Made by a program: the position numbers and the translations under genes
The notes under the pieces: model-generated
Database searches by the model: none
What the model was told of the DNA's origin: nothing
The model's input: only the letters and a program-made list of their open reading frames with translations
In this document: piece by piece, positions 1 through 60,516 of the stretch
How positions within the stretch are numbered: position 1 is the stretch's first letter
Layout: every line of letters begins with the position of its first letter
Assembly: GCA_964434265.1 (NCBI GenBank)
Contig: CAYSUK010000001.1
Location: 47,126 to 111,125, forward strand
Direction of reading: 5' to 3'
Source of the DNA: an uncultured Christensenella sp.
GTDB taxonomy: Bacteria; Bacillota; Clostridia; Christensenellales; UBA1242
Length of the DNA stretch: 64,000 nt

Positions 1-3000
1 ACTTTAAATAGTGCAAATAGTTATACTTCGGCTAGCACGATTAGCGGTACGACTGGCACAAACAGCAACGGCTATCGCGCGTACACATTTACTGTTTCGA
101 GCAGTAATACTAGCACAAGTATGACGGGCAGTTTGACAGCGTATAGTTATAGCACAGAGAAGATGTACAAGCATTCTATCGAAAACAATGCCGGGCTTTC
201 GAGCAGTCAAGTGTATTTGACATCGTCGCTTAGTGGCAGCACCAAGTACACGAGCTTGTTTACGATAGCGGGCACTGACATCAAACTAAACTATCCTGCG
301 ACTTCGGGCGAGTACCTAGATGCTGCTGTGACCCGCACGGGCAAAGTCGAAAACACAGCTGCGTCGGGTTATGACTACACGGCTACGACTTCTGATGTAG
401 TAAACACCGTGACTTACTCCTTGGCGACATATGAAGACTATATCTTTATACAACAAGAAGGCTCGGCTGTAGGCGATGACTTGGTCAGTGAATTCTGCTA
501 TGGCGATGGCGGAGTTATAAACATTCCGGACGAGATATGGGGCGACTATGACGACGACCTTGAGTACTGGGATTATAATAATGAAACCTATGTTACTTGG
601 GCAAACAGTCCACTTAGAAATGTAATCCGCAAGAGTGCGTATGTCACTATCGATGATACAAACTATCTTGGAATTATGAGCACTGCAGTGGGCATATATC
701 AATCACGTCCTGCTGAAGCGAAGACAAAGGGGACAGTTGTGACTGCGACTGTGCATTTCCCAGTCGGGTACAAGGTGGGCAGTATCTCATACAATGGTGT
801 AACTATTACACCTACCAGCACAACGACGACTTCGGCTACGTTTAGTTATACAGTAGCGGGTGTCGAAGGTGCAGAACTTGTAATCAATGTTGTGCAAAAC
901 AAGTGGAATGACTCAGACAATATTGTTGCGCCTACGGGCAGCGGTACTTCAAGCAGTCCATACGTGATAGACACAGCCGCGAAGTTTGGCTGGATGGTAA
1001 ACAAAATCAACAGTGGCGGAAGTTATGCGACTGCATACTATTCGATTGGCGCCGATATCAATCTTGGCACTGATGCAAACGGCAATACGATGTATATTGA
1101 CCCTATCAAAACCTTCAGCGGCACTATTTCGGGTTCGGCTTTGTACTCGATTATCGATATGAACATAAATCAAGAATATGCTTGTTTTATGCACACAAAC
1201 AATGGCACTATCTCAGACCTTATCTTTGTAGACCCTTGCTTTACTGGTGCGAAATTTGCCGGTTTGGTCTACAACAATGGTACATACACTAGCAGTAGTT
1301 CGTACACAACTGGCACTATAGAATGTGTCGGTATGCGTACAGACGACAGCATTCGCGGTCTATATGCTATGGAAGTTGTAGAATATATGGGCGATGTCGA
1401 ATTTGGCGTTGTGTCCATGGTCTATTTCAACTCAGTTGATTCATACATGTTCGATGTATTCTGTGCGGTAAAAGTATATGGCGACGTATATGGCCTTGCT
1501 TATCTTCATTCAGGTGCTATATATGATGCTTATACTGATTTTAGTATCGCAAAAGCCACATCAGCTAGTACAAAATTCTATGCTTTGGCATACTTATTAA
1601 ATGGTTATAGTGATGATAATAACGCTTATGTAGCTAATTTCTACACTCCTAGCACTGGAATGAGCAGTGTAGCGGATACACGTTATGTATTCGATGGAGC
1701 ACAATGTGCGTGCATAGACTTTGTCTGTTACTTTGTGGATGGTGAATATAGCAATGGGACTGGATATTTGCAAGATGGCGGACATAATAATTTTTATGCT
1801 GAACCTGTGGGTATGACTACTGCTGAGCTTCAAGATGTAAATAATTATTATTTTGAAGATTTTAGTTATTGGATATTTACACCTGACGACAGCGATATAT
1901 CAAATAATATCTATCGCGGTCAAAAATACGACCCTTCAAACAAGTATCCATTGCTTACTATGGGTGCTGAGACAAATCTTCTATCAGTATATTTTAGATA
2001 TACTCTAAATAACAATGGCACAACTACGACAGGTGATATAGACAGTGTTAAAATTACACAATATGGCTGGTCAATGGAGAATTGGTATACTTGGGTAGAG
2101 AAAAACAAGGCATTTAGCTTTAAGGTCATAAAAGACAATGTAAGTTATGACACTCCAGTATACTTGACAAGTATAAAAAGTGATAGGGGCTTTAGTTACT
2201 CATTTGAATTGACACCTTCACGTTATGCTACGGCTACTTACACTATAAGTGCTTCAAATGCTGTGTTTGATGATTATTCGGCAGTGATTATGCTTTACTT
2301 CAGCACGGCTGAAAGCTCATTTGATAGTGATTATGATATTTTCATGACAGGCAAAGAGTACAACGATGCTATGGACGGTCGTCATTATGATTATGCAGTT
2401 GCGGCCAGCACAACGTCAAACGGAACTGCGCGTGCGAAGACATACAATTATTCGATAGACACCGCATATGGCGCACTTGTTGTGCAAACACTCAAGGTAG
2501 GGGATGCGGAAATCCTTTCTGGGCATTTGACAACAGCAGTGACCAAGTATATTTATCTAAATGGCAGTACATATAGTGCAAACTCGTCTAAGAGTGGCAC
2601 TGGCACATATATCGGCAAGGTGGTTGTGACCCCAAGCAGTGTTCGTGCCGGCAAAATCGAGCTTTATGAACTCAAAGAAGACATATTTATTAAGGCTGAG
2701 CTTTATGTGGCTTATCAAGTCACTTACACTGGGCTAAATTCTAGTGTCCAAAACACTATTACGACATATTATAGCACTAGCGCTATCACGACAAGCACGA
2801 CTTCGACTAAACTTGGCGATGTTCGTACTAGCGGTGGGCTAGCAGGGACGACTTCGGGACCATATTATGCTCCTGTAATGAGTAATGGCAACACAACCTT
2901 CGTCGGCAGTGTTATAAAGGGAAATAGTAAGAGCTTTACTCTTGGTGCAGCAAAACACAACAACACCACCGACTACACAAACACCAATTATGCTAGTACA

Positions 3001-6000
3001 GCTGATTATGCACACAGTGTAGGCGTGATTGACCTTGCAAGCACTACAAATAGTGTTGCGACATTGGAGTACAGATTTGGGCCAGGCGCTTATGACTACA
3101 CTATCACGCTAGACATTTCTAAAACAACGACAGCTCCTTCGGCTGTAGTAGTAAGATTGTTGGATAGCAACGACAATGAATTGCAAAGCGAGCCGTTTAC
3201 GTCTATAGGGCCAGGCTCCAAAGTTGTGCTTAAGAAGGTAGACGCAAGCTTGACTGGTTTACAACTTGAAGCTGTTGTGACAGCGGCAAGTGGAAAGGCT
3301 TATCGTGTTATTTGGAACGATTTGTACAAAGGCACTGCGGGCAACAAATTTAAATGTGACAATCCGACCGGACCTCGTAGTTACACCTTGTATGTAGTCG
3401 AACTATTTAAGGCGACTATAAAAAATAAATACAATGATAATGGTTATGCTTCTACTTGGGCAAAAGAGAAAGTAAATCCTACACTAAAAATCACTTATAC
3501 GGCTTCTACGGCTTCTCTTAAATTTGTAGGTGCACCAGAAACTACTTTTGCCGCTGGTTTTGCTGATGAAAACAACATATTCACATCATCTCAAGTAATA
3601 GATTATGGTAGTAAAGTTGAGTTTTCTCGCGGTGATGCAATAGTAAACGATGATTATAAAATATACTTCTCTCATATTTATAGCAATGTAGATCAAGATA
3701 AAGATAGTGAAAAGACTATCACTGCTTGTACATCTGATCCTTCTATTGAATTTAAATATAATATTGTAGTACGTGAAATAAGGACAACAATTACAAATAA
3801 AAACTTGGATAAACATCCAAATGATTATATTGGTGTATCCTTATTATACGCTTCTTCCAATACTACTGTAGATGGATATAATACTTGTTATGGAGGCGCT
3901 TATGTTATTAAATATGTAGACATAGTAGATGCTAATAATAGGGATAAACCTATAGAAGGTGAAGATTTAAAATCAATACGTGGCACCCGTATCTTTAATG
4001 TCGTAGGTGGTGAACTAATTAAGGTAATCAGATCCGATGATAAAGATATTAATGGAAATTATGTAAATAGCATACAAACGATAACACAATCTAATTCTGG
4101 TAATAATGACGTATTTGATGTAGTAAAAAATGAATCTGATAAGTTGATAGGTAGATATGGTTATGTAAAAGATAATGCTTTATTTGAATTTACATATTAT
4201 CCATATGTGCAAATAGGTGCTAATGTAGGAAGAATTGCTACTTCTATGAATGCAAATAATAACTATTCTACCTTATTGAATGGCACCTTTACCATTCAAG
4301 GAAAGGAAGTATCAAAAGATGAGAATGGTTATTACATAGAAAATAGTAAAGCCCAATATTTTGCATCTGAGAATGATGTATTTGAAACACCAATTTATAT
4401 TTGTATTACATATACTATACACAAAGAACGACTTAAAGGTTGGGAAGATAATGGCTGGTATATAGGTAGTACTCTAATCGAAAATGGGGGTGCAGTAGAG
4501 TTAAATAAAACAAAGATAGGGACATATGTCGTATTAGACTCTGAATCAGGCAATTACAAAATTTACACACTTAAATTCCCTTGCAGCATAGAAGATAGTG
4601 ATGCTATAGAGAATAAAGAATATGTTTTGAAATTTACTGAAACTACTGTTTCATATACTGCATATAGCAAGCTTACAAGTGGTGGAAAAACTACAGAAAA
4701 CAATGCTGTAGCTACTAAAACTTTGTGGGAGTTTGGTGATGCGAGTTATACTGGTTCTGGAACACTTATTGCAACTAGTAATAATGATCGTATCAATGCC
4801 ACACTTGGATATCATGGTTATTACAGATTTGAAATTGTTTCTTCCAAGTTAGATGAATACAATTATGATACATATTCATACAGTGGATTAGAAGATACGG
4901 ATGTGACAAGTTCTTATATAACAAATGATGGCTCAGATTATGATATTGATACAATAATATCTGGTATCCGATTAGACTTTACACATCCTACAGGTGCAGT
5001 TTCTACATCTGCCACATTCAAAAAATGGCATAACGTACCTACTGTAATATACAAAGTCAATTATGTATCAACTGGTTATACTGGCAAATATTTGCTACAT
5101 GGTGGCAGATTTAATAATTATATGCTCATAGAAGAAAGTTATGAGTTTGTAATTGCTGATATCCATTTTTCTGGAACTGCTACTTTGGGCGATGGTAATT
5201 TATCCTTTAATAAAGTCCTTGAAGGCAGTACTTTTAGAGTAACTGTGAGTGTACATGAAAATTTGTTCACTTGCCTTACAGAAACAAATGCTGATGGTGA
5301 AATTGAAGTTGAAATTACTGGTGATACTAGTATCACTCTGGAATTTAAAGAAAATGTGTATACTATAAATTATCGTAGAAATAATGACAACGAGTTGTTG
5401 TATCCAAATAAAGATATTGATCCAGATGTAGATATAGATGTATTAAAACTTGGTAGCTTAGTAGGTGTATTAGAACCTTACAATATACCTGCAATTAGCA
5501 AAACAAGCCCAGGCGACGAATATGTATTTGAAGAGTGGAGTTGTACAAATAAATCATTTGATACTGAAGATGTGATCTTTAATGATAAAGCCGATATTAA
5601 TACAAGCTTATATATGATATATGGCGAAGACGGCGCGACATACGATATCTATGCAAACTGGCGTCGTAAATACTACAATACATTTAATATTGGCGATAAT
5701 AATGGTGTAGAGACTACACAAAAGACAAAAGATGATAATACACGTGTTGGCGGAACATTGACTTCAATTTCGGTAAAAAATGATCCAGAAAAAGGAAAAA
5801 ATGAAAAGTATCAATATAGCAACACTGCTACTGTATCATATACTGCAAATGCCGGTTATACATTCACAGGTTTGAAAGTAAATAAAGTAACAATTGGTAC
5901 AGTTGAAAAGGATAGTGGTACAATCACAATTAGTGATGATGGAATAACAGTATCACGTAATTATTCGACATGTAATATAAAAACAAATAGCACTATTACA

Positions 6001-9000
6001 TATGGCGGAAATACTTACTATGTAAAAGACAACTTCCTATATCTTGACGCAGAGCATGTTGTGCATTATGGAGAATTTGACTATCAAGTAAGTGATGGCT
6101 ATGTGTATATTTACGATATTCCAGATGTAAAAATAACTGCTTGTTTTGAAGAAAATACATATAATCTAAATATTACCCAACCATCTGGCGGAGAAATAAC
6201 AATAACCTCACACACAAGTAGTGCTCCAGATATCCAATACTCAAATAGTTTGCCTACTCGCATAACTCTTGGATATTTCTCGAGCGTAACACTTACTTAC
6301 ACAAACACTAATGCAAATTATCGTTTCCAAAGCTGGAATTGTGATAAAAAAGATTATGTAGACCTAGTTTCTGCAAATCCTACTACACTTTCTCTAAATG
6401 ACAAGGGTATAAATGAAGGAGTCACAAGTATAGATATTTCTGTTGGGGAATACAAACAAGTAAAAATTACCAATACTGATAGATCATACTTGATAAGATT
6501 TCTTCAAGATTCGGAAGCAAGTTGGTCACGACTAACTTTAAGGAACATAATGCTAGACGGCAGTAGTGTAGTCTGGATATATGATAATTTTGTACTAGTA
6601 TACGAAGTATCTGGCAATAACACTATTATGACTACAAACTGGACTCGTACATGCACAAATAGTTCACATGTGGCAGAAGGACTATCCGAGCACACTACAG
6701 AATGCGACGATTGTAAGTTTACAAGTGTAGATATGTATGTTGTGCTAAACGACGCAGCTCCTGATACTTTGAATATCACAATGCATCTTGGCCATTACTA
6801 TATAGGCGACGATGTCAATGTAAATCCAAATCCAGATAGCGCTGAGTTTTATAGCTCTTATTTTAAAAATGTAAATTTGTGGAAAAATGGTATTGGCTAT
6901 GTAAGTGACTATTTGACACTTACTGGTGATGCTACTTCATCAGTTACGGCTTCTATCAAAGCAAGTACTACTGGTTTTGATACAGTACTTCCTATAGCTG
7001 AATTTACTGCACGACCATATGACGATGTAAGTGCTGAAGACCATACATCTACAAATAACGAAAGGGTGTATGTTGCTACACAAAATACTCCTTCGCTTAA
7101 AGTCCTTGAAGGTGCATATGTCAAAATTGTTGCTGAAGACTATGTGGACAGCAATGCACGTAAGTCATATAAGTTCTCGCACTGGACATTTGAACCAAGC
7201 GATGCTGAATATGGCGATGCTGACTGGATGAGCGATACTGAAACTCACACTGCTTCACTTGAATTCCAAGTGTTTGCAAGTAGGGCAGGTACCTACACCG
7301 CGCATTATACTTATGCTTATAGCCTTAATACTGATAGCGGTAAAACAACAGACGACGGCAAAACCTTCACTACCGCAAATGTCACATCTGCGACATTAAC
7401 CGCATCTGGCACTAAGTATTATAGTGCAGACAACAAATATCTTGCAGGTTCGACTGTTACTCTTACAGCAGCACTACAATCGGGTTATGCATTCCAAGGC
7501 TGGTACTTGTATGACGGCGAAAATTATACCAAAATAGATTCTGACACAACAGGATTTACTACTATTTCGGATAATACACTTGTATTCACCGTCGGCGGAA
7601 AAGATTGTGACAACAACACTATACCTGGTGTCGACCTTGAAACGTATGATATTGTATTTATAGGCACTCCGCTACTCGCATATCAATTTGGTGGCGCAAC
7701 TGGTGCACCAAGTGCGACTTACACTGTAAGCGGAGATGGTGTATACAGTGTAACTGGAGGAACTCTAAGCGGAAACACAGCAACCATGACTGCCGTAGGT
7801 GGCACATACATGACTGTATATGTCAAAGAAGGCACAACAATCACTTTCACAATGAGCAAGTCTGAGACTTCGGCTCGCGCAACGGGAGTATTGAATGGTT
7901 CGACAACGCTTGACGCCAATACAATTCCTCAAGTGACATTTATCGATTATGGAATTTCTGGTTTGACATACAGCATGACTGCATTAGGAGGCACTGCTGG
8001 CAAGTACGAAGTTGTTTATACAAATATATACTCAGTTGTGGCAAAATCGGCTGCCACAGTGACCGACACTCACGTAACTGCTAGTTATAAGGACAATATC
8101 TCAAACAGTATTATCACTATTACTGCAAGTAGTACTGGAATAACATATAATGGTGTGACTTATTATGACCATAATACCACAATCGAACTATCTGCTACTA
8201 TCCCTGTTGGTCACGATTTTGTATCTTGGGTTACAAATAGCACAACTTATACAAATAGCACACAAACTATCACACTTATAAGTTCGATTACTTCACTTAC
8301 TTTAAATATATCCGAAATTGAGTACGATATCACTAAAGTAATGCAAGTTTCTATTCCAAATGGCTTTAATAACAACATTAAGGAAGATACAACTTGGACG
8401 TCAGATAGCTTTGGTTCGTTTGCTTACACTTCTGACCACGTATCAGACAGCACAAAAGTAGGATATTTTGGCAAAATCACTATCGGTGATTTTACAAGTG
8501 GTAAATATCTCTACATTAGTGGTAGTAAAGCATACTATGATAGCGAATACAAACATGAAGTGTATAGCGGTCTTTACTCGATATCGGGTAGTACACTCAC
8601 ATATCTAGGTGCGGAGTATTCGATATCATCAAACAACACGGCTGAAGTATGGAGCATGTACACAAATCCTATATATGCTGTTACGGGCGGAACCCTATCT
8701 CAAGATGGTATCACTATCGAAAACATCCGTGGTGCTATCACAATCACATGTACTGCAGAGATGCAAGGTAAGTTGAATAATAGCACTAAAAACAACAAGA
8801 CCGATACAATCCTTGACAGTGCAAGCCAAAGCACTCTCAAGATGACAGATACTGTGACATACACAGCTGCTACAAAAGCTGGTTATGTCTTCAAAGGCTG
8901 GGTAGAGTATAACTGCAACAACGTTAGAAATACTGCTGTAGGCGGCTACTATTCGACAGAAAGCAGCATAACAATAAAGTTAAACGAAGAGAACAACGGC

Positions 9001-12000
9001 AACTATTATGTAGCCGTATACAACCCTACATTTAGTCTCACAGTCGGGGCAAACACATTTGACCAATGTGCTTCTATTAAGGTTTCGTTTGGTGACACTG
9101 AAGAGACCTTGACAAACCCAACTCAAACTAAAGTGTATTCAAACATCGAGTGGGGCACAACCATCACACTTGTAGCGACTCCAAAAGGTCAAAACCGTAC
9201 AAACTATTGGACGCTCACATACGGTGACCAAACCCAAACATCGAGTGGCAGCACAATCAAATTCAACATTCAAGACAATGCGACAGCAATACACGAGTTC
9301 TTGACCCAACACACAATCACTGTTACACACGACAAAGAATTTACAACCACTGGTGGCACTTGGAGTATCCAACAATCAAGTCTATCAAATGGCGAGTGGA
9401 GTGATTGGACAAACGTCACTACTGACGGCTTTGTAGGTGCGACAGGAAGTAAGATATTCACAAAAGCCGATGATGGAATAAGATATAGAGTTGTGATTAC
9501 CACAAACACACACCACTATGTTACATTATCTGCTTCTGGCAATGGATACACTATCGATGGCTCAAACAATACATATGTCACAAGTGGAACTTTGACATCA
9601 TATGTTTACTTCAATGGCGCAGACTCAAACGGCGTGACAGAAGATAGCACACTTACTATCTCACATACCGGTCTAAACTACATAAACATCACTACATCTC
9701 CAAGCGGTCTTGGAAATACAGTGACAGTAGACGAAAACATCGGCGGTTCGACTAGCGGTAGTTCAAAACTAAGCACTATTATCCGTAAAAACAATGGCAG
9801 TGCAGAGCTTAGCACAACAGCAGTAGCAGGTTATGACACACCTACTTGGTCGACAAACGCTGGCACATTAAGTGCTACTAGTGGATTGTCGTCGTCACTA
9901 AGTTATACTTGGTCGGCAGACACACTAGGCAAAACATACAACATCACACTTACATATAAAAACAACTCAAATAAGTCTATCAGCTTGAATGTGATAGGAT
10001 TTACAAGCGATCTACACTATACATCTATGAAGGGCACTACCGATTTAAAAATAGGTGACGATTTGATACATCCATCGGAAATTTCAAATCTTTCTCTTGC
10101 AAGTGGAGTTACATCGATTAGATTTAGTGGCTTTGTAAGTAGCGAAGTCAAGAAATTGACTTTGACAGACGGAACTACGACATCGACAGTAGATGTAGTA
10201 GATGACAATGCATATATCGAATACACTATCCCAAGTGGAGCAGGCGATAGCATATCATTGACACTTACTATCACAAACAACACATGGATAGATAGCGGAA
10301 ACTACACCGCTCCAAGTGGCTCAGGTACAGCAGCAGACCCATATCAAATAGCAAATGCTCAAAATTTTGCATGGATCTCATACAAATCTGCAAAAGATAG
10401 AGAAAGTTTTGATGGCAAGTACTTTGTCCAAACAGGCAATATCGACCTTTCCGGTCACCTATGGCTCCCTATCCAACATTTTAATGGTGTATTTGTAGGC
10501 AGCCACGATTATCTCATCTCAAATCAAGCATGTTATGGTCACTCATATCACTTTGAAGATGAAGATGATACATTTATGGAAGGCGACTATGACTACACTA
10601 TAGGCTCGTTATTTGCAAATTCAGACGGCGGTGTATTTAAATCATTGCGATTGAAGAATAAAAGAAATTATGATTCCTATGATGATTGTGATTCAATAAT
10701 GCACACATCTACAAAAGCATTATTGTTGGGAAATGGTCGAGACGTCGTTATTGATGGTATCAAAATCGAAGAATCCGACTTTTATGCTCACGGAAATGGT
10801 GGAGCTCTTGTAGCTAATTTACATGGTGGTAAGATCACAAATATCTATATTGATTTTGTACAAATGAAATTTGATATTGTGTATCTAAATACTCTCTTGA
10901 TAGGTCGAATATCTAAAGGAGATGCTACTTACTATGATAGTAATGGAAATGCAAGTAATGTAGTAATCGAAAATGTATATATTGATGCAGGTGTCGCTTT
11001 CAGTATTATAGGCAATATAGAGACAGATGTATCATTACTAAACATTTACTTTAGAGGTGATGTACAAGTACAAACATTTATCATTATGATAGATGAATAT
11101 TCTGTCACCCTGGAAAATGTAGTACTATATGGTTTGACTGGTAATGTGGATTATGGAAATATAATCGGAATTTGTGATGGAATTTCAGTAAATTGTACTG
11201 ATGTATGGTGTCATTGCTTTTATGACAATATTACATTCCTAAATGGCACAACCCCTACTGGTGTTACATTTGTTACTGGAGAAGATACATCATCTTTAGA
11301 GAACTTCATCAAGTCGCTTTATGAAAAGGGTGGAAATCCTTGGTTCTACAATATTCCGGGTAAAAATACTTATGATGATGACTTTGGTATGGATCTATTT
11401 GGTGAGCGTGTCACAAGTTCGAGTGACGATACAGTCACAATCGAAGATGGCAGCATCAAACTTAGCGGAGACGTATCCATCACTAAGTTTAAAAACGCAC
11501 TTTCTGCACTTGCTACAAATAGCGAAGTCACTAAGGTCGAACTATTTAGTAGTATAGACTTTAAGGGTGCAAGCCTTGACACCATGTACACTATCCCAGC
11601 TGGCAAAACCTTTGACGGCCACGGATATACAATATCTGGTATCAAAGCAGTGCGCGATATGACTGACGGAAGGTTTGAAGCGGGAATATTTAGCCAAATA
11701 AACGGCACATTGCGACGTACAATCTTTGAAAACATATATGTATATGTAAGTTCAGGTGCTGCGACAACATGTACTTACTCGCATATTGGACTTATCTTTG
11801 GATATTCAAATGGCGCGACTATATCAAATGTCACAGTCAAGAATAGCCGACTAAATGTCGTGTTTGACGGACTTTGTGCGGTTGATGATACGTCATATCC
11901 AAATATCGGTCTATTAGGCGGAGCAAATGACCAAAGCAACTTCACATATATCGATATCATAAATAGCAAAATCACATTTAGCCAATATGGTGCAACTACT

Positions 12001-15000
12001 CAAGAAGCATTCAAAATCGCCGGCTTTATAGGATATAGTGCTAGTGGCAGCATAAACAATGTACAAGTAGACACTGACATAATCGTCGATAGCAGCTCAA
12101 ATATGCACATTGTTTCTGGATTGGTTGGTACACAACGTACATCTGTCACAAATGCAGCTATTACTGGCGATATTACATCGACATCTTCGTCTAGCAATGT
12201 TTATCCTATCGCGGGAATAACTTGGGGTGCTGCTAATAGTTACTCAGTATCCACAGCATATGTAAGCGGAACGTTTAGTCCAAAAGCAAGTACATTGTAT
12301 GGCACTACTGATTCGATCTCATACACAAATGTTTATGTTTCCGAATTAGCATCTTCTGCAAGCGGAACTAAGACCGATGCCGAGATGAAGAGTTATAGCA
12401 CTTATGAAGGATTTAACTTAGATGAGATGTGGTATAGTACTGCAGAAGAATTGAGTTGGTTTATGGATGGTTTCACGTATAATGATCATTCTGAAAACAA
12501 TGGCTATCCATATTTCTCAGTAGCTTCAAACAACTTTAAATTCACTTTAAATCTATCAGGAGATGGTGCAAGTGGTGTTAGAGCAAATTTGAACTCTTAT
12601 CAAAAATCTCATGTGCTTGATGCTGCAGGTACTGTAAATAGACTATTTGAAGTTAATGACCTTGATGTTTATGAAGATATATACGTATATGTCAAAGGCA
12701 ATAATGGATATTATCTAGACACTGCAGAGTCGACTATCGACCTTACAGAGTCTTCAAGTCCAATATCATTGGAAAGTTGGATATCGAGTATCGGCTTGAC
12801 TGTAGATGGCTGTTATTCTGATGAAGATAAATTCACATTATTTACTTTGCCAATGCAATCGCATTCGGAGTATGACGTAACGCTAAATCTAGTAGTTAAG
12901 AAAGTCGATTATACTATCACAGCTACAGCAAGCGGACACGGAAGCGTGGTTTCGGGTGCTGGCAGTTATAAAACAGGCGATACTGTTACACTAGTTGCTT
13001 CGGCAAATAGTAGTGACGACGAGTATTGTATGCACCAATTTGTAGGTTGGTACAAGGGCAATACACTCAAGAGCACAAAACTTACATACTCCTTTACAGC
13101 AAGCGAAAGCACAGCGGGTGAGTATGAAGCTAAGTTCTGCTCAGGCAGCAATTGTCTATATAAGGTAAAAACCAGCATCACATCTGGTGTAGAAAGCACA
13201 GTCAGTCCTTCTGATACCGGATTTATGAATGTTGGAGAGTCAGTCGAACTTAAAGCAAATCTCACTTCTAGTGAAGAGATAGTTTCTATCACTCGAGACG
13301 GGGTAGAGATTTACAACAAGATAGATGGTGTACTTGACACAAGCTATACTGTAGATTTGACCGAAAACACACTCACACTTTCATTCACAATGCGTACTGC
13401 TACAAAAGGCCAATACCTATTTAATGTGGGTATGACGTCTCGTCTCGTAACGGTAAATATCCCTAATGTAGGCGGAAGTACAATTAATCAAACTGATGCA
13501 TATTCGGCTCACGGCGTAATTACACTCGCTCCAGAAGGTGGCGCAACATCGGTAATTAACGCAAATTCGACTATGGGCACAGTAAATGTGTTGTATGGCA
13601 AAACACTCACAATCACATTTATGTCAGATATCCGCTACAAACTTGATTCGGTTTCTACTAGCATAACTGGTGGAAATACAAGCTTTACTGCTTCGACTTC
13701 GACAGTAGACGGATACACACGTTATACATATACTTACACGACTGACGCGATTACTGACGATGCGACTATCACCCTAAATCTTGTAAAAGACAGATGGGTG
13801 GACATCTCGTATGACGAAAACACATCGACATATTCGTTTGGTGCTGGACACTCGGCTGAGTTTATTACAGCAAACGGCGGAACAGCAGCAAATGAAATCT
13901 CGGCATCTAGCGCAACATTTGGCACCGACCAAGCCTACAAAGGCCTAAGCGGAAATCCAATTGTTATCTCGACCGCAGCACAACTTGCTCGTGTGTCATA
14001 TCTTGTAAATATAGGTGCAACCTTTATGACCTATATTGATGGTGAACTTACACAAGTATATTATCATAATGCATATTACAAAATCACTGCGGACATCGAC
14101 CTAAACAACTACTTCTGGACCCCTATAAATGCTATCAATGTAGATACTACTTATAGCGTGTCTACAAGTATGAATATCGTATCCGAAACACAAAATTCGA
14201 TTAAGAATATGTATATAAGATACGATGGCGAAGAAGAAGCAATAGACCATACTGATAATTTCAGTTATGTTGGTTTCTTCGGATCAAGTGTAAAAGATAC
14301 AATTACTGGCATCACATTTGACAATGCAGTAATATACAATTCGCATGGAAGTGGTAGATCTGGTGCGGTTGCTGGTATGTCTTATTATAGCCAATTTAAC
14401 TTTATTACTGTCAAAAACTCTACGTTTAATTTCGCAAGTTATGGTGCTGGATTGGTAGGTCAAACTATTGGTGATACATTCAACTATGTAAATTCCATTT
14501 CAAACACTGCAAAAGTAATTGCTGGCAGTACTTATACTAGTTTTGGTGGCATAGTAGCATATATGTATCGTAGCACGATAAACAATGCTTCGGTAAGTGG
14601 TTTGAATATCATAACTCCAGATAATTATAATTATTATAGTTTCGAAATAGGTGGTGTAGTAGGTGTCAACATGTCATCAGTAGTAAAAGACGTAGTAGTC
14701 GACACAATAACCACTAATGGCAATAATATATATCTTTCTAGTATATCATATGAAGCATACTATGGTTCGGAATATATAAATGTTTGGTCAAAAGAGTCTA
14801 CTAATTTGATTGCAAAGAATTATAGTAATGGCACTATAAATGTACTAAATGGTACTCCAGATTTGAGCACGCTTGGTCTAAGTAGTGATACATGGTACGT
14901 AAGTGGTGGTGTAGCCTATACAAAAGGTTATGGCGCTGGCACAAATACCATAAGCCGTATCGCTGATGTAACGACTGGCGGATTTGCTGGCGGAACAGGT

Positions 15001-16947
15001 ACTAAGAGTGACCCATATCTAATAGCGACTGCTGATCAATTTAGATATCTACAATATCTTGTAAATAGCGGAAATACTACTTACAATAGTATCAGCAAGT
15101 ACTACAAAATCACTGCCGACCTTGACCTTGGTGGTGGAATAAGCACTATGCTTGGTACAGCTGTAGATAATAATTATCGCGAGAGTAATATAGGACACTT
15201 TAATGGACACTTAGATGGTGACTTCCACACTATCTCAAATATGATAATATTTGACCCTTACAGCGATAGATTTGTTGGATTTATGCCATATCCAAATATT
15301 GGTGCTACTCTTAAAAACCTAAATCTTGACAACTATACTATATTCGGCAGTGCATATTATGTCGGCGGTATCGTAGGTTGTGGCTATGAAGGAGTAAATA
15401 TCGACAATGTAAGCATCACAAATGGTTATGTCGCTGGACTAGGCATATATTTGGGTGGTATAGTCGGTTATATCAAAACTAATACTTCTGATTCGATAGT
15501 TAAAAATTCATCATTTAGTGGTATACTCACAGGTACTGCAGGTGTGCAAGGTGGTATAGTAGGTTTTACTTATCATAATAATTCTGACTACAATATCTAT
15601 ATCCAAAATTGTAGTACTGACGGACTATCTATTACTGGATATGCTATATCAGGCGGTATATTAGGTCAAAGCCACGTTGATGGTAATAATACAACAAAGA
15701 CATATATCACAAACTGTGTAAACAATATGAAGTTGCTTGTATCCACAGGAGAAGTAGGTGGTATTGTAGGTTATACATACAATACTGAAATAGAAAACTG
15801 CTACAATAATGGCGAAATAGTATTATATTATTATGTTATAGCAGAAAGTAGTGATACTTACTACAATACTGATGAAAACTTTAATAATGGTACATATAGT
15901 ACAAACACAGAATACAACACATTCTATGGTGAAATTGTTGGACGTAACTATAATAATCTAAACAATTCGACAGTTATTAAAAACACTTACTATAATGAAG
16001 CCAAGAAAATTGTTCTTTCAAATATGAGTAAGAATGGAATACTTCTTCCATATGGTGACAAGAATATACTTGGACATACACCAAATGGATATAGTATTTG
16101 GACTACTACACGTGATATAGGAGCTACGTATATTGACAACATTGGCAGTGCAGAGATGAAATACGAGTCCGAATTGAAGGAACAAGGAAACTTCGCTGCA
16201 TGGGACACTTACACTGTATGGAATGTCGACGGAACTAGTTTGCCAACACTTCGTTGGGCTACTCAAAATAGACTTTATCTTGAGGGTGAAGGTCTTAGAA
16301 TATCTGATGACGGTCTAGCGGTAATAGTAGATGGCGGCAAGATTACATTTGCTGACGGGGTAAGACCTGTCGCAGATAGTGACGGACGTATATATGTTTA
16401 TGCAAGCGGTAGTGCTCTTGATGTAAACCTTGTTCCTGACACAAACAATGAGTTGGAGTCAGCACAAGTGAGAGAGTACTATGGAAGTACATATACTACA
16501 CTTAATAGTTCGAGCATAGACTTCGATACATATAGCGACGGAACATCGTTTAAGGTGCTTAAAGTATCCTTTGTAAATAGCGAGTTTAGCATCACTATAA
16601 ATACTTCGCTTTCACGCGGAAATGGTATCGCAATTGGCGGATACGAGACTTTGCATATTGTGATTCTAAACGTTACTACAAATCAAGCATACACTTGCAC
16701 TCTTGATGACGGAACATATGTGTTTGATGGGCTACTTGCTGGTGACTATTATGTCGCAGTGTACACTTCGATGTTCTTCAATGTTTCAAACATTACATGT
16801 TCGACAAGCGGTGTTGAGTTTGCAAATTCTGAGTTCTATTATACACTTAGTCTTTCAAATTCGACATCGGCAAATGCTACTATCAACATCACAGCCAATA
16901 AGACTGTTGATGCTTGGATATACAGTAAGGTTGAGATAGGTGCATAA
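1..16947 (+). CDS. Giant surface/adhesin-like protein; the 5' end lies outside the window (>=5648 codons here). Ig/B-repeat-like arrays are interspersed with GLUG-type beta-helix modules.
   Basis: Frame 1 is open from nt 1: 40 sense codons precede the first ATG at 121, and no SD sits in front of it. A single TAA ends the frame at 16945-16947. The composition is T/S/N/G/Y-rich and extracellular in type. A unit junction W-x-D...(A)P(T/S)GSGT..PY.I..A..F.W recurs at nt 898-1000 and 10279-10380. Related G.(S/T)G..P(I/Y).I.TA.Q segments occur at 13941-13995 and 14989-15050. Each is followed by Y(Y/F)..(T/G).(A/N).(I)D(I/L)(N/D/S)L. GG(I/L/V)(V/L)G repeats occur every ~25-30 aa at ~14340-14700 and ~15360-15800. 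Y.F..W motifs typical of Listeria-Bacteroides B-repeats occur at nt 5521, 6319, 7168, 7486, 8884 and 13033. Confidence 0.85.
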   Translation, partial: TLNSANSYTSASTISGTTGTNSNGYRAYTFTVSSSNTSTSMTGSLTAYSYSTEKMYKHSIENNAGLSSSQVYLTSSLSGSTKYTSLFTIAGTDIKLNYPATSGEYLDAAVTRTGKVENTAASGYDYTATTSDVVNTVTYSLATYEDYIFIQQEGSAVGDDLVSEFCYGDGGVINIPDEIWGDYDDDLEYWDYNNETYVTWANSPLRNVIRKSAYVTIDDTNYLGIMSTAVGIYQSRPAEAKTKGTVVTATVHFPVGYKVGSISYNGVTITPTSTTTTSATFSYTVAGVEGAELVINVVQNKWNDSDNIVAPTGSGTSSSPYVIDTAAKFGWMVNKINSGGSYATAYYSIGADINLGTDANGNTMYIDPIKTFSGTISGSALYSIIDMNINQEYACFMHTNNGTISDLIFVDPCFTGAKFAGLVYNNGTYTSSSSYTTGTIECVGMRTDDSIRGLYAMEVVEYMGDVEFGVVSMVYFNSVDSYMFDVFCAVKVYGDVYGLAYLHSGAIYDAYTDFSIAKATSASTKFYALAYLLNGYSDDNNAYVANFYTPSTGMSSVADTRYVFDGAQCACIDFVCYFVDGEYSNGTGYLQDGGHNNFYAEPVGMTTAELQDVNNYYFEDFSYWIFTPDDSDISNNIYRGQKYDPSNKYPLLTMGAETNLLSVYFRYTLNNNGTTTTGDIDSVKITQYGWSMENWYTWVEKNKAFSFKVIKDNVSYDTPVYLTSIKSDRGFSYSFELTPSRYATATYTISASNAVFDDYSAVIMLYFSTAESSFDSDYDIFMTGKEYNDAMDGRHYDYAVAASTTSNGTARAKTYNYSIDTAYGALVVQTLKVGDAEILSGHLTTAVTKYIYLNGSTYSANSSKSGTGTYIGKVVVTPSSVRAGKIELYELKEDIFIKAELYVAYQVTYTGLNSSVQNTITTYYSTSAITTSTTSTKLGDVRTSGGLAGTTSGPYYAPVMSNGNTTFVGSVIKGNSKSFTLGAAKHNNTTDYTNTNYASTADYAHSVGVIDLASTTNSVATLEYRFGPGAYDYTITLDISKTTTAPSAVVVRLLDSNDNELQSEPFTSIGPGSKVVLKKVDASLTGLQLEAVVTAASGKAYRVIWNDLYKGTAGNKFKCDNPTGPRSYTLYVVELFKATIKNKYNDNGYASTWAKEKVNPTLKITYTASTASLKFVGAPETTFAAGFADENNIFTSSQVIDYGSKVEFSRGDAIVNDDYKIYFSHIYSNVDQDKDSEKTITACTSDPSIEFKYNIVVREIRTTITNKNLDKHPNDYIGVSLLYASSNTTVDGYNTCYGGAYVIKYVDIVDANNRDKPIEGEDLKSIRGTRIFNVVGGELIKVIRSDDKDINGNYVNSIQTITQSNSGNNDVFDVVKNESDKLIGRYGYVKDNALFEFTYYPYVQIGANVGRIATSMNANNNYSTLLNGTFTIQGKEVSKDENGYYIENSKAQYFASENDVFETPIYICITYTIHKERLKGWEDNGWYIGSTLIENGGAVELNKTKIGTYVVLDSESGNYKIYTLKFPCSIEDSDAIENKEYVLKFTETTVSYTAYSKLTSGGKTTENNAVATKTLWEFGDASYTGSGTLIATSNNDRINATLGYHGYYRFEIVSSKLDEYNYDTYSYSGLEDTDVTSSYITNDGSDYDIDTIISGIRLDFTHPTGAVSTSATFKKWHNVPTVIYKVNYVSTGYTGKYLLHGGRFNNYMLIEESYEFVIADIHFSGTATLGDGNLSFNKVLEGSTFRVTVSVHENLFTCLTETNADGEIEVEITGDTSITLEFKENVYTINYRRNNDNELLYPNKDIDPDVDIDVLKLGSLVGVLEPYNIPAISKTSPGDEYVFEEWSCTNKSFDTEDVIFNDKADINTSLYMIYGEDGATYDIYANWRRKYYNTFNIGDNNGVETTQKTKDDNTRVGGTLTSISVKNDPEKGKNEKYQYSNTATVSYTANAGYTFTGLKVNKVTIGTVEKDSGTITISDDGITVSRNYSTCNIKTNSTITYGGNTYYVKDNFLYLDAEHVVHYGEFDYQVSDGYVYIYDIPDVKITACFEENTYNLNITQPSGGEITITSHTSSAPDIQYSNSLPTRITLGYFSSVTLTYTNTNANYRFQSWNCDKKDYVDLVSANPTTLSLNDKGINEGVTSIDISVGEYKQVKITNTDRSYLIRFLQDSEASWSRLTLRNIMLDGSSVVWIYDNFVLVYEVSGNNTIMTTNWTRTCTNSSHVAEGLSEHTTECDDCKFTSVDMYVVLNDAAPDTLNITMHLGHYYIGDDVNVNPNPDSAEFYSSYFKNVNLWKNGIGYVSDYLTLTGDATSSVTASIKASTTGFDTVLPIAEFTARPYDDVSAEDHTSTNNERVYVATQNTPSLKVLEGAYVKIVAEDYVDSNARKSYKFSHWTFEPSDAEYGDADWMSDTETHTASLEFQVFASRAGTYTAHYTYAYSLNTDSGKTTDDGKTFTTANVTSATLTASGTKYYSADNKYLAGSTVTLTAALQSGYAFQGWYLYDGENYTKIDSDTTGFTTISDNTLVFTVGGKDCDNNTIPGVDLETYDIVFIGTPLLAYQFGGATGAPSATYTVSGDGVYSVTGGTLSGNTATMTAVGGTYMTVYVKEGTTITFTMSKSETSARATGVLNGSTTLDANTIPQVTFIDYGISGLTYSMTALGGTAGKYEVVYTNIYSVVAKSAATVTDTHVTASYKDNISNSIITITASSTGITYNGVTYYDHNTTIELSATIPVGHDFVSWVTNSTTYTNSTQTITLISSITSLTLNISEIEYDITKVMQVSIPNGFNNNIKEDTTWTSDSFGSFAYTSDHVSDSTKVGYFGKITIGDFTSGKYLYISGSKAYYDSEYKHEVYSGLYSISGSTLTYLGAEYSISSNNTAEVWSMYTNPIYAVTGGTLSQDGITIENIRGAITITCTAEMQGKLNNSTKNNKTDTILDSASQSTLKMTDTVTYTAATKAGYVFKGWVEYNCNNVRNTAVGGYYSTESSITIKLNEENNGNYYVAVYNPTFSLTVGANTFDQCASIKVSFGDTEETLTNPTQTKVYSNIEWGTTITLVATPKGQNRTNYWTLTYGDQTQTSSGSTIKFNIQDNATAIHEFLTQHTITVTHDKEFTTTGGTWSIQQSSLSNGEWSDWTNVTTDGFVGATGSKIFTKADDGIRYRVVITTNTHHYVTLSASGNGYTIDGSNNTYVTSGTLTSYVYFNGADSNGVTEDSTLTISHTGLNYINITTSPSGLGNTVTVDENIGGSTSGSSKLSTIIRKNNGSAELSTTAVAGYDTPTWSTNAGTLSATSGLSSSLSYTWSADTLGKTYNITLTYKNNSNKSISLNVIGFTSDLHYTSMKGTTDLKIGDDLIHPSEISNLSLASGVTSIRFSGFVSSEVKKLTLTDGTTTSTVDVVDDNAYIEYTIPSGAGDSISLTLTITNNTWIDSGNYTAPSGSGTAADPYQIANAQNFAWISYKSAKDRESFDGKYFVQTGNIDLSGHLWLPIQHFNGVFVGSHDYLISNQACYGHSYHFEDEDDTFMEGDYDYTIGSLFANSDGGVFKSLRLKNKRNYDSYDDCDSIMHTSTKALLLGNGRDVVIDGIKIEESDFYAHGNGGALVANLHGGKITNIYIDFVQMKFDIVYLNTLLIGRISKGDATYYDSNGNASNVVIENVYIDAGVAFSIIGNIETDVSLLNIYFRGDVQVQTFIIMIDEYSVTLENVVLYGLTGNVDYGNIIGICDGISVNCTDVWCHCFYDNITFLNGTTPTGVTFVTGEDTSSLENFIKSLYEKGGNPWFYNIPGKNTYDDDFGMDLFGERVTSSSDDTVTIEDGSIKLSGDVSITKFKNALSALATNSEVTKVELFSSIDFKGASLDTMYTIPAGKTFDGHGYTISGIKAVRDMTDGRFEAGIFSQINGTLRRTIFENIYVYVSSGAATTCTYSHIGLIFGYSNGATISNVTVKNSRLNVVFDGLCAVDDTSYPNIGLLGGANDQSNFTYIDIINSKITFSQYGATTQEAFKIAGFIGYSASGSINNVQVDTDIIVDSSSNMHIVSGLVGTQRTSVTNAAITGDITSTSSSSNVYPIAGITWGAANSYSVSTAYVSGTFSPKASTLYGTTDSISYTNVYVSELASSASGTKTDAEMKSYSTYEGFNLDEMWYSTAEELSWFMDGFTYNDHSENNGYPYFSVASNNFKFTLNLSGDGASGVRANLNSYQKSHVLDAAGTVNRLFEVNDLDVYEDIYVYVKGNNGYYLDTAESTIDLTESSSPISLESWISSIGLTVDGCYSDEDKFTLFTLPMQSHSEYDVTLNLVVKKVDYTITATASGHGSVVSGAGSYKTGDTVTLVASANSSDDEYCMHQFVGWYKGNTLKSTKLTYSFTASESTAGEYEAKFCSGSNCLYKVKTSITSGVESTVSPSDTGFMNVGESVELKANLTSSEEIVSITRDGVEIYNKIDGVLDTSYTVDLTENTLTLSFTMRTATKGQYLFNVGMTSRLVTVNIPNVGGSTINQTDAYSAHGVITLAPEGGATSVINANSTMGTVNVLYGKTLTITFMSDIRYKLDSVSTSITGGNTSFTASTSTVDGYTRYTYTYTTDAITDDATITLNLVKDRWVDISYDENTSTYSFGAGHSAEFITANGGTAANEISASSATFGTDQAYKGLSGNPIVISTAAQLARVSYLVNIGATFMTYIDGELTQVYYHNAYYKITADIDLNNYFWTPINAINVDTTYSVSTSMNIVSETQNSIKNMYIRYDGEEEAIDHTDNFSYVGFFGSSVKDTITGITFDNAVIYNSHGSGRSGAVAGMSYYSQFNFITVKNSTFNFASYGAGLVGQTIGDTFNYVNSISNTAKVIAGSTYTSFGGIVAYMYRSTINNASVSGLNIITPDNYNYYSFEIGGVVGVNMSSVVKDVVVDTITTNGNNIYLSSISYEAYYGSEYINVWSKESTNLIAKNYSNGTINVLNGTPDLSTLGLSSDTWYVSGGVAYTKGYGAGTNTISRIADVTTGGFAGGTGTKSDPYLIATADQFRYLQYLVNSGNTTYNSISKYYKITADLDLGGGISTMLGTAVDNNYRESNIGHFNGHLDGDFHTISNMIIFDPYSDRFVGFMPYPNIGATLKNLNLDNYTIFGSAYYVGGIVGCGYEGVNIDNVSITNGYVAGLGIYLGGIVGYIKTNTSDSIVKNSSFSGILTGTAGVQGGIVGFTYHNNSDYNIYIQNCSTDGLSITGYAISGGILGQSHVDGNNTTKTYITNCVNNMKLLVSTGEVGGIVGYTYNTEIENCYNNGEIVLYYYVIAESSDTYYNTDENFNNGTYSTNTEYNTFYGEIVGRNYNNLNNSTVIKNTYYNEAKKIVLSNMSKNGILLPYGDKNILGHTPNGYSIWTTTRDIGATYIDNIGSAEMKYESELKEQGNFAAWDTYTVWNVDGTSLPTLRWATQNRLYLEGEGLRISDDGLAVIVDGGKITFADGVRPVADSDGRIYVYASGSALDVNLVPDTNNELESAQVREYYGSTYTTLNSSSIDFDTYSDGTSFKVLKVSFVNSEFSITINTSLSRGNGIAIGGYETLHIVILNVTTNQAYTCTLDDGTYVFDGLLAGDYYVAVYTSMFFNVSNITCSTSGVEFANSEFYYTLSLSNSTSANATINITANKTVDAWIYSKVEIGA

Positions 16948-17116
16948 TCTATCTTGACCCGCCTTATGGCGGTGACTCTTGGAGTCAAAATCTTGATATG
17001 TACTTGGCACACAAACTTAAATATAAAGAATTAAGCAATCAAAAATTATTTAAAATCAATGTGCCAATATACATATAGACAAAAGTTTGGCGGTCTTATG
17101 ACTGCGGATAAAAAAA

Positions 17117-17140: not shown

Positions 17141-17149
17141 TCGTTTAAA

Positions 17150-17179
17150 AGGAAGTCATATTTGGCTTTCTTTTTTTTA
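17150..17179 (+). terminator. Rho-independent terminator candidate (second of a tandem pair)
   Basis: Stem AGGAAGTCA / TGGCTTTCT (two G-U pairs), loop TATT, followed by a T8 run. Confidence 0.55.
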
Positions 17180-17715: not shown

Positions 17716-18183
17716 TTATTTCTCTTCTTTTTTAGCAGTAGTCTTTTTAGCTGTTGTAGCCTTCTTAGCAGGTGCTTTTTCAGTTGTAGCCTTCTTAGCA
17801 GCTGTAGCTTTTTTTGCAGAGGCTTTTTTCTCTGCTTTTACTTCTTCTACAACTTCAACTTTCTCTTCTTTCTCTACCTTTGCTACTTTTTCTACTTTAG
17901 CAACAGTGTTTTTACTGTTTGCTTTTGCTTTGTTTAGAGCAAGGTTTAGACGAGATATCTTTCTGCTAGCATTGTTTTTATGAATAACACCTTTTGAGCA
18001 TGCTGAGTTGATGTAAGCAACAGTGTCGTTTAGTTTTGCTTCTGCTTCTTCTACTTTGCCTTCTGCAACAAGTTTTCTAAAACTTTTTACCATAGTAGCA
18101 AGAGTGCTTTTTACATAACGATTTTCGCTTCTCTCTCTATCATTTGTGTTTATTCTCTTTTTTGCTGATTTGATGTTTGCCAC
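17716..18183 (-). CDS. rpsT: 30S ribosomal protein S20 with a ~69-aa Lys/Ala/Glu-rich C-terminal extension
   Basis: The N-terminus MANIKSAKKRI...NR..KS......K........G....A......A...I..A..KGVIHKNNA.RK.SRL is the S20 signature. The protein is 155 aa against ~85-90 aa for typical S20. Confidence 0.93.
   Translation of the reverse strand: MANIKSAKKRINTNDRERSENRYVKSTLATMVKSFRKLVAEGKVEEAEAKLNDTVAYINSACSKGVIHKNNASRKISRLNLALNKAKANSKNTVAKVEKVAKVEKEEKVEVVEEVKAEKKASAKKATAAKKATTEKAPAKKATTAKKTTAKKEEK
17753..17801. repeat. In-frame direct repeat inside the rpsT tail
   Basis: GTTGTAGCCTTCTTAGCAG occurs at 17753-17771 and again at 17783-17801 (30-nt period). It encodes the reiterated AKKATT units. Confidence 0.85.
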
Positions 18184-53084: not shown

Positions 53085-53128
53085 ATATGTCATAACCTTT
53101 TGACATTTGGCATTTACACAAATATAAT
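53085..53128 (+). promoter_or_regulatory. Consensus sigma-70 promoter overlapped by a second TGACAT/ATGTCA inverted repeat
   Basis: TTGACA (53100-53105), 17-nt spacer, TATAAT (53123-53128). ATATGTCA (53085-53092) and TGACAT (53101-53106) form an inverted repeat across the -35. Confidence 0.7.
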
Positions 53129-53159
53129 TAAGAAAAAAATGAAAAATGGAGAAACAAAA

Positions 53160-53720: not shown

Positions 53721-53774
53721 TTTTTTTAGACTGATATTGTCGCAAATTAGATAAAATTGACAAAAATTGTTGTA

Positions 53775-54500: not shown

Positions 54501-54603
54501 ATAATCACCTAAGTATATTTTAACAAAAAATTAATTTTGTTACATTTTAAGACTTGTAAAAAATGTGGAGATATATGTCTAAAAAAATACATTTGGGGAG
54601 AAA

Positions 54604-56514: not shown

Positions 56515-56530
56515 TATCAAAGGAGAAATA

Positions 56531-58417: not shown

Positions 58418-58443
58418 AGTTATGTTATTATATCTATTTATAA

Positions 58444-59268: not shown

Positions 59269-59278
59269 GAGAAAAAAT

Positions 59279-60460: not shown

Positions 60461-60473
60461 AATTTAAAATTGT

Positions 60474-60500: not shown

Positions 60501-60516
60501 ATATAAGGAAAAAATT

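Follow-up and report, generated by a model that had tools for sequence, protein, structure and literature searches.

A giant gene of an uncultured gut Clostridia bacterium with five GLUG-type β-solenoid modules, probably encoding an adhesin-like surface protein

The window analysed here is a stretch of 64,000 nucleotides (nt) from an uncultured Christensenella sp. (GenBank assembly GCA_964434265.1, contig CAYSUK010000001.1, forward-strand positions 47,126 to 111,125), and its first part (1..16947, + strand) is occupied by a giant open reading frame (ORF). This ORF is one real gene, in a single piece, and not a chimeric assembly within the window. Its product contains five anciently diverged GLUG-type right-handed β-solenoid modules, each capped at its N-terminus by a helix (G-S/T-G-T..P-Y.I..A..) and finished by a closing motif (T..E-M/L-K/Q...W...YP.L). 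The interpretation that we favour, and regard as probable, is that a chromosomal gene of uncultured spore-forming gut Clostridia encodes a giant, acidic, all-β and non-enzymatic extracellular protein of the adhesin-like class, rich in Thr, Ser, Tyr, Asn and Gly.

The open frame, frame 1, extends over 5,648 codons from nt 1 to 16944, with a TAA stop at 16945-16947. The five other frames over the same DNA contain 206-578 stops and frame 1 none, which excludes a chance open frame (about e^-200 at the lowest stop frequency). As called, the gene begins 726 nt upstream of window nt 1. An exhaustive HMMER search with residues 650-1849 as query, among 1.84 billion (1.84e9) representatives, returned P0121, a gene call of 5,890 amino acids (aa) on a 362,787-bp NCBI contig that is 100% identical to the window frame; the ORF corresponds to its codons 243-5890, window codon 1 being residue 243. 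Positions are given below as window codons (aa 1 = window codon 1) unless P0121 residues are named, and the region upstream of window nt 1 is known only as protein, from P0121. A Logan contig (run SRR10277277, 21 kb) shows 100% identity along the 8.6 kb available for comparison; its gene call, 5,721 aa long, is cut off by the end of the contig, and this locus falls short of the 5' end of the gene. The uninterrupted frame and the same order of modules are common to four independent assemblies, which makes mis-assembly within the window very unlikely. The description given in a first-pass annotation of the window, a single uninterrupted giant frame of more than 5,600 codons, therefore stands. 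The composition (Thr 12.3%, Ser 10.4%, Gly 8.7%, Asn 7.7%, Tyr 7.5%), the excess of acidic over basic residues (599 versus 335) and the low hydropathy (the top Kyte-Doolittle value for a 19-mer is only 1.36) together give the profile of an extracellular β-rich protein without membrane segments.

The solenoid modules were located with a custom GLUG-unit hidden Markov model (HMM) built from database homologues of the last 665 residues. A search with these residues returns 369 proteins at E<=1e-5, nearly all of them with PF07581; identity in the best matches is 29-36% and confined to the ~270-aa helix. Unit 5 (aa 4987-5420, 14959..16260, +), identified by Pfam, homologues and structure, is the most canonical copy. 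The Pfam GLUG model PF07581 matches the unit-5 segment with 23.1 bits (20.6 bits for a longer segment; cut-off 20.5), and the custom HMM matches it (aa 4987-5383) by construction, so that no independent E-value (i-E) attaches to this match. Units 1-4 are not detected by the Pfam GLUG model itself. With the custom HMM, unit 1 (aa 306-655, 916..1965, +) gives an i-E of 1.6e-14 over an envelope of aa 306-634; it consists of the cap PTGSGTSSSPYVIDTAAKF, coils and the closing motif TTAELQ...YWIF...KYPLL, and is linked to units 2, 4 and 5 by tile BLAST as well as by profiles and motifs. Unit 2 (aa 3431-3802, 10291..11406, +), which is co-linear in the orthologous loci L002 and L003 and in the orthologous protein P0124, is matched over aa 3431-~3770, with an i-E of 4.6e-15 for the cap and a weak 0.026 for the coils. 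Unit 3 (aa 3831-4170, 11491..12510, +) is matched over aa 3831-4139 (i-E 4e-6 and 6e-8); its cap is atypical, without the GSGT..PY motif, and its closing motif is TDAEMKSYSTYEGF...MWY...GYP. Unit 4 (aa 4638-4984, 13912..14952, +) has an i-E of 1.7e-14 and is related to unit 5 by tile BLAST (E 2.6e-05). The gaps between successive units are 2,775, 28, 467 and 2 aa, unit 5 adjoining unit 4 without an intervening W-x-D domain. The earlier count of at least four to five chained units is thus matched by five in the window.

With an alignment of 40 rows as input, AlphaFold2 (AF2) modelled aa 4985-5648, which contain unit 5 of the five modules. About 290 residues of unit 5 (model residues ~11-300) have a predicted local distance difference test (pLDDT) score >90 and form a β-solenoid, with short strands stacked regularly behind a helix cap at the N-terminus. 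The best Foldseek match is PDB 3n6z (E 3e-7, template modelling (TM) score 0.64 on the target), the solenoid of BACOVA_03286, a "putative IgA1 protease" of B. ovatus whose repeats are related to GLUG repeats (PMC4021314). Next come IgA1 proteases of streptococci and Gemella, matched through their helix domains (E 8e-4 to 4e-3; M26 helices 6xja, 6xjb and 7uvk) and, more weakly, the β-helix adhesins SRRP and PfbA and β-helix enzymes. Compared with 3n6z and the M26 proteases, to which identity is only 14-20%, the window protein lacks the Zn-protease domain, HExxH, the G5 domain and LPXTG. Together with the Pfam score and the PF07581 homologues, the model supports the earlier recognition of GLUG or IgA-protease-like β-helices from the letters alone.

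The modules are set in a recurring junction. NKWND (aa 300, nt 898), NTWID (aa 3427, nt 10279) and DRWVD (aa 4597, nt 13789) are followed by the caps APTGSGTSSSPYVIDTAAKF, APSGSGTAADPYQIANAQNF and GLSGNPIVISTAAQLARV, and these in turn by YYSIGADINL, YFVQTGNIDL and YYKITADIDL, respectively. The closing motifs are located at nt 1810-1965, 12370-12510 and 16150-16260. Copies of the junction are 27-35% identical, with E down to 6e-10 in tile BLAST. Because iterated self-profiles give circular E-values, the paralogy dot-plot was based on single-round profiles from orthologous copies only, so that each detection of a paralogue is independent. These profiles detect paralogous junctions at E 2e-31 to 1e-05. 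For example, the "pre-cap domain + cap" junction of unit 1 (aa 251-400) recurs at aa 3392-3508 (2e-24 to 2e-31), 4648-4725 (1e-05) and 4996-5046 (5e-12), and the profiles relate the pre-cap domain (aa 243-302) to aa 3351-3450 (6e-12), to aa 4501-4600 (8e-4) and to the B-repeat cluster (aa 2701-2800, 3e-4). The coils of units 3, 4 and 5 detect each other (unit 3 against unit 4, 3e-06, and against unit 5, 4e-04); the closing motifs likewise link units 3 and 5 (1e-04).

A B-repeat-like domain ending in W-x-D thus recurrently precedes three caps. All the motifs quoted in the first-pass annotation are where it had placed them, and its central observation, that one junction recurs from W-x-D β-domain through cap and solenoid to closing motif, is borne out by tile BLAST and by the ortholog-only profiles. 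The self dot-plot that it had proposed, made at the level of profiles, shows repeated junctions, coils and closing motifs, and the proposed profile searches find GLUG and Flg_new_2 above their Pfam cut-offs as well as repeated modules. The pattern recurs without being uniform: unit 3 lacks the GSGT..PY cap, unit 5 lacks the W-x-D domain and the spacing is uneven.

Between the solenoids lie spacers of mixed make-up. The β-rich region before unit 1 (aa 1-305, 1..915, +), defined by ortholog-only profiles and motif, ends in a domain of the B-repeat or pre-cap family (aa ~243-302, terminating in NKWND). The long spacer (aa 656-3430, 1966..10290, +) combines unique sequence with an InlB B-repeat-like cluster (aa ~2425-3060) and a pre-cap domain (aa 3351-3430) that ends in NTWID. 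Three B-repeat domains are distinguished in this cluster. The first (aa 2461-2539, 7381..7617, +; motif GYAFQGW) is found by an internal profile and by Pfam Flg_new_2 (PF18998, aa 2464-2520, 24.6 bits against a cut-off of 23.6), the second (aa 2569-2640, 7705..7920, +) by the internal profile at 3e-15 after iteration and by the ortholog-only profile at 6e-4, and the third (aa 2940-3002, 8818..9006, +; motif GYVFKGW) by tile BLAST, by the internal profile and, at 1e-06, by the ortholog-only profile. A weak Flg_new_2-like domain at aa 1934-1989 (5800..5967, +) reaches 20.3 bits with PF18998, below the same cut-off, and appears in the iterated self-profile. Spacer 2 (aa 4171-4637, 12511..13911, +), defined by Pfam, the internal profile and the pre-cap domain, contains the second cluster (aa 4280-4600), with B-repeat domains at aa 4304-4367 (Flg_new_2, 24.4 bits, above the cut-off) and 4394-4472, and a pre-cap domain ending in DRWVD. 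A canonical Flg_new profile made from homologues gives weak matches (E 0.0025-0.14), B-repeat profiles seeded from the giant protein find nothing in the set of GLUG homologues, and hhalign tiles retrieve only the four copies already inside the profile. Only part of the spacer sequence is therefore demonstrably B-repeat-like: the earlier description of Ig/B-repeat-like runs is apt for some spacers, which are of the InlB B-repeat type, and does not extend to aa 656-2400 and 3060-3350, which are unique.

This unique sequence appears to amount to about 2,000 aa without relatives outside the ortholog cluster. Ortholog-only profiles reveal no internal paralogues of aa ~400-2400 (unit 1 apart) or of aa 3060-3350. 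A word-indexed search of 5.8 billion proteins with aa 656-~2400 and ~3060-3350 returns no match, and neither do Pfam, NCBIfam or PDB sequence searches with the orphan stretch. The exhaustive search of the 1.84e9 representatives yields only P0121, one ortholog cluster and one spurious repeat protein. P0123 (28% identity in 12 stretches) was rejected as a relative, being an unrelated low-complexity repeat protein. The first 300-650 aa of the window frame, too, are without relatives in GTDB genomes, JGI metagenomes and IMG/VR.

Downstream of unit 5, a C-terminal tail (aa 5421-5648, 16261..16944, +) is defined by the alignment of four orthologs and by weak Pfam matches (SdrD_B, E 0.013; CarboxypepD_reg, E 0.089). 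Its last ~130 aa (16543-16944) are the best-conserved part of the protein: identity to P0124 reaches 70% in the last bin, compared with ~41% over the whole length, and long invariant blocks run through the four orthologs. The motif DDGTYVFDGLLAGDYYVAVY (DDGTYVFD.L..G.YYV) is reminiscent of Cna-B and CarboxypepD_reg sandwiches, and the AF2 model of the tail is of low confidence. The protein thus appears to end in a strongly conserved β-sandwich-like domain of ~130 aa, which matches no known anchoring or sorting domain and is a candidate for a new retention or targeting module. No LPXTG-type sorting signal (LPx[TSA][GAN]) occurs anywhere in the protein, nor does any transmembrane-like stretch in its window part, and the C-terminus (...DAWIYSKVEIGA) is not hydrophobic.

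The LysRS encoded in the window is 95% and 88% identical to those of two metagenome-assembled genomes of uncultured gut Clostridia, L002 and L003, respectively, and more distant relatives are from gut metagenomes, human and rabbit among them; the host is therefore an uncultured spore-forming gut Clostridia bacterium. In L002 and L003 alike, the position upstream of an S20-like gene, gpr, slt and lysS is again occupied by a long ORF, and these ORFs are co-linear with the last ~2,300 residues of the giant protein at ~43% and 41% identity, respectively. The rpsT-gpr-slt-lysS synteny is conserved across lineages. Moreover, the full-length ortholog P0124 (7,497 aa), in which the custom profile finds eight GLUG units, is co-linear from residue 1763 to 7497 with P0121 residues 232-5890, at 33-41% identity. 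The architecture, co-linear in three other lineages, is thus ancestral and does not come from genes joined recently.

Two further claims of the first-pass annotation do not survive this comparison. It had read the ORF as several complete adhesins joined in one frame; no unit has a signal peptide or anchor of its own, and LPXTG, transmembrane-like stretches and HExxH are all absent. It had also supposed that smaller surface proteins of this type consist entirely of this one pattern; the relatives of ~1,000 aa hold two or three tandem units together with Flg_new and Cu_amine_oxidN1 domains. The units are domains and not former proteins, and tandem units are normal in the GLUG family.

These smaller GLUG proteins of gut Clostridia (PF07581; ~1,000 aa; Flg_new + GLUG + Cu_amine_oxidN1), which make up most of the 369 matches to the last 665 residues, are among the closest known systems. 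They share the capped β-solenoid with its cap and closing motifs, at 29-36% identity to unit 5, the tandem arrangement (2-3 units per protein) and the pairing with Listeria-Bacteroides or InlB B-repeat domains. The window protein differs in being 5-7 times longer, with five units (eight in the ortholog), in lacking Cu_amine_oxidN1, dockerin, SLH or any other known retention domain, and in having ~2,000 aa of orphan sequence and a different, conserved C-terminal domain. A likeness by description extends to the giant adhesin-like proteins of Clostridia and archaea, with which it has in common the habitat, the taxon class, the repetitive β-domain make-up and a proposed surface-binding role. For giant Clostridia proteins (10,000-30,000 aa) that carry Listeria-Bacteroides repeats and come from metagenomes of the mammalian gut, surface binding has been proposed (bioRxiv 10.1101/2023.11.21.568195), and GLUG and Flg_new proteins of gut archaea have been described as adhesin-like gut adaptations, the function of GLUG being called unknown (PMC9723798). 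Unlike the giant Clostridia proteins, the window protein is smaller and consists mostly of GLUG solenoids and unique sequence, not of long arrays of near-identical repeats. The right-handed parallel β-helix is also that of L. reuteri SRRP (5nxk, 5ny0) and S. pneumoniae PfbA (4mr0), where it binds ligands, although the match is weak (probability 0.33-0.77, TM <=0.31) and serine-rich repeats, the SecA2/aSec context and LPXTG are missing here. Of the parts of a fibrillar adhesin, a signal peptide is present by inspection in the ortholog P0122 and absent from P0121, clusters of B-repeats that might form a stalk occur in the window protein, and no known anchor is found.

The adhesin-type inference draws on the composition, the signal peptide of the ortholog, the partner domains of GLUG, the structural kinship and the literature. 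GLUG relatives combine this domain with Flg_new, Cu_amine_oxidN1, dockerin, type IX secretion system (T9SS) or peptidoglycan-binding domains. After export, the protein would be displayed in the form of a long fibre; the faces of the solenoids, the terminal domains or both could bind ligands on host, dietary or microbial surfaces, and the spacer domains could act as a stalk. The rapid divergence of the protein (~43% identity) may reflect diversification of an exposed surface.

Several observations weigh against this reading. To our knowledge, GLUG proteins have no established ligand, binding activity or localisation, and the term adhesin is applied by analogy. The AF2 model covers unit 5 only, and its Foldseek matches to adhesin β-helices are weak (probability about 0.3-0.8, TM <0.35). 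The protein contains no known wall-binding repeat, and Pfam and NCBIfam scans find no anchor in it. The P0121 call has no signal peptide, and export in the window's own strain is unproven. The orphan sequence of ~2,000 aa could hide an activity. Lastly, the divergence of the giant protein is fast but is matched by that of the amidohydrolase: identities to L002 are ~43% for the giant ORF, 95% for LysRS, 71% for DegV, 69% for Gpr and 42% for the amidohydrolase, so that diversifying selection is not demonstrated. A first impression of exceptionally fast evolution was toned down accordingly, L002 being more distant than its LysRS suggests.

The N-terminal end of the protein is where P0121 and its orthologs part. 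The ortholog fragment P0122 begins with MRNKRIKPNFRVKHPYGYLIKSMLIGLVLVFTSIFSMATGV..ASNADA|A, by inspection a Sec signal peptide, followed by three further GLUG units; the 5' part of the ortholog comprises ~1,760 aa. In its place, P0121 starts with MIYGSN and six repeats of ~41 aa (IWTDGTNIYYS...QYVLDK.TNTW..KTW.G), with W[TS]DG at residues 8, 48, 90, 131, 173 and 214, as in a family of β-propeller proteins. The 231 residues of P0121 upstream of the co-linear part have 684 matches in this family (best E 1e-131, 45-60% identity). AF2 predicts a six-bladed Kelch-like propeller (pLDDT ~97) for the family member P0125, and this model matches Kelch propellers, including Kelch-like and structural proteins of jumbo phages. 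Family members measure 350-480 aa and have mostly phage-fibre-like heads. Their repeat domain is C-terminal (the JGI annotation of the "IWTDGxNIYYS" family is a secreted protein with C-terminal β-propeller), behind phage-fibre-like, prepilin or signal-peptide heads, whereas in P0121 it is N-terminal. In 120 of them the sequence ends directly behind the YVL[DE] of blade 6 (median 13 residues past the match); P0121 reads on for ~5,650 residues. The end of its propeller is the start of the co-linearity with P0124. A MAFFT global alignment that placed the propeller on P0124 at 48% was rejected as an artefact of scattered residues, P0124 having no WTDG repeats.

Among family members, P0147, P0201, P0209 and P0215 carry the propeller on a prepilin leader (KGFTLIELLVV) or on heads with a signal peptide and Flg_new domains. 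The range of heads suggests that the propeller is a portable distal binding module common to phage fibres, pilins and secreted proteins. On two ENA contigs of 210 kb and 121 kb (L015 8804-17580 and L016 8804-17580, respectively), at least seven paralogous genes of ~350-390 aa ending in the propeller form a tandem array, which adjoins genes for phage head-tail joining (Phage_H_T_join_2), a virion structural protein (phrog_3013) and an HNH endonuclease. Such an array may be a cassette of alternative receptor-binding proteins. The family itself is not recognised by PHROGs, the link to phages coming from genomic context.

For the 5' end of P0121 three readings can be considered: a start codon called at the wrong place, a chimera that works, or a remnant of recent date. 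From its sequence, P0121 looks like the 3' part of a propeller gene fused to a giant gene truncated at its 5' end. One alternative to the surface-protein reading takes this at face value: a deletion or recombination would have joined the propeller gene, of phage-fibre, pilin or secreted type, in frame at codon ~1763 of the ancestral giant gene, with loss of the signal peptide and the three GLUG units, so that the product would not be exported by Sec and might be a recent, still intact remnant. The abrupt start six residues before blade 1 without a signal peptide, the 120 family members that end just where co-linearity with P0124 begins, and the lack of propeller repeats in P0124 all speak for it. 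So does the Logan gene call, which crosses the junction between propeller and body by 62 codons before breaking inside the repeats; the junction is thereby supported and the region further upstream shown to be assembly-prone. Against it, 5,890 codons open in AT-rich DNA imply selection or a very recent event. The start may also have been mis-called, with a head carrying an export signal just upstream, given that prepilin and signal-peptide heads exist in the family, and repeats with a period of 120 nt break short-read assemblies, the Logan contig ending inside them. We regard this alternative as unlikely.

A variant of it retains function. The propeller would have been grafted in frame in place of the Sec signal and three solenoids, giving a functional chimera displayed or released by a non-Sec route or by means of an upstream head (e.g. 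a prepilin leader), and the orphan ~2,000 aa would hold undescribed folds or activities. This combination seems to us distinctly unlikely.

It is quite improbable that the solenoids instead have enzymatic activity towards polysaccharides or proteins (as lyases, epimerases, glycosidases or peptidase-associated helices), which would make the product a giant multi-catalytic surface enzyme and no adhesin. The lower Foldseek matches do include AlgE epimerases, PL3 pectate lyases and GH87, and the best structural matches are annotated as IgA1 proteases; but the former have a probability of 0.1-0.35 and a TM score <0.2 on the query, and the latter cover the helix domain and not the Zn-protease domain. 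HExxH, the hallmark by which an M26 protease would be recognised, is absent from both P0121 and P0124. Pfam, NCBIfam and PDB sequence searches reveal no catalytic or peptidase family, NCBIfam being wholly without match and the PDB search giving nothing beyond noise (E 0.55). The absence of HExxH and of catalytic families in every profile library is the basis for reading the protein as non-enzymatic.

A phage-related origin, in which the gene would encode a giant fibre or host-adhesion protein of a prophage upstream of the window, is very improbable. The phage structural neighbourhoods of the propeller family, with their arrays of paralogues, and the resemblance of its fold to jumbo-phage proteins are in its favour, but the gene body is syntenic with rpsT-gpr-slt-lysS in three lineages, an ortholog has a Sec signal peptide, viral contigs contain no relative of the first 300 aa, and the prophage block of the window starts 36 kb downstream. 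Barely credible, finally, is an assembly artefact that merged several genes or strains into a single frame. In its favour, the DNA comes from a metagenome-assembled genome and the 5' propeller repeats, outside the window, are assembly-prone. Against it, nt 1-17000 contain no tandem repeats and no direct repeats >30 nt, an independent assembly from Logan has the identical sequence, co-linearity with three orthologs of other studies extends over 2,300-5,700 aa, and the paralogous modules, at 27-35% identity, are too diverged to mislead an assembler.

Read as an adhesin-like surface protein, a kind common in gut Firmicutes, the product extends a known class and leaves current concepts unchanged. 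Giant adhesin-like proteins are thought to shape the attachment of uncultured gut Firmicutes, in which GLUG modules abound, to host, food and microbes, and this locus offers a clean, assembly-robust example of five (in the ortholog eight) diverged solenoid modules. The four orthologs provide a means of mapping conservation, with the C-terminal domain as a candidate retention or targeting module, and the exchange of an export-signal end for a propeller of phage or pilus type is an apparent natural experiment. Of moderate interest are the orphan ~2,000 aa, the conserved C-terminal domain without an anchor and the swap of propeller for signal peptide.

Inside the giant ORF, the G+C content of 2-kb blocks ranges from 0.32 to 0.43; the lowest blocks, 4001-6000 and 14001-16000, correspond to part of the orphan region and to units 4-5. 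A terminator-like hairpin followed by a T-run (17147..17174, +), a pattern match from a consensus scan, lies 200 nt past the stop. Downstream follow a small ORF, the S20-like gene, gpr (germination protease), the gene with an SLT domain, lysS, degV and clpC, and further on an S8 subtilase gene, obg, genes of murein synthesis and a type II topoisomerase pair. The S20-like ribosomal protein gene (17716-18183, -), so assigned by inspection, has a long Lys/Ala-rich C-terminal extension, and only the N-terminal ~90 aa of its product are conserved in relatives (90% in L002). The window contains no tRNA or Rfam match. A 934-aa ORF (50021-52825, -) without Pfam match and with a marginal C-terminal PHROG match stands just before a prophage-like block (53100-63690, to the window end), which includes a sigma-like regulator and genes for the terminase large subunit (54604-56034), the portal (56531-58417), the major head protein (59279-60460) and a virion structural protein (61430-62911).

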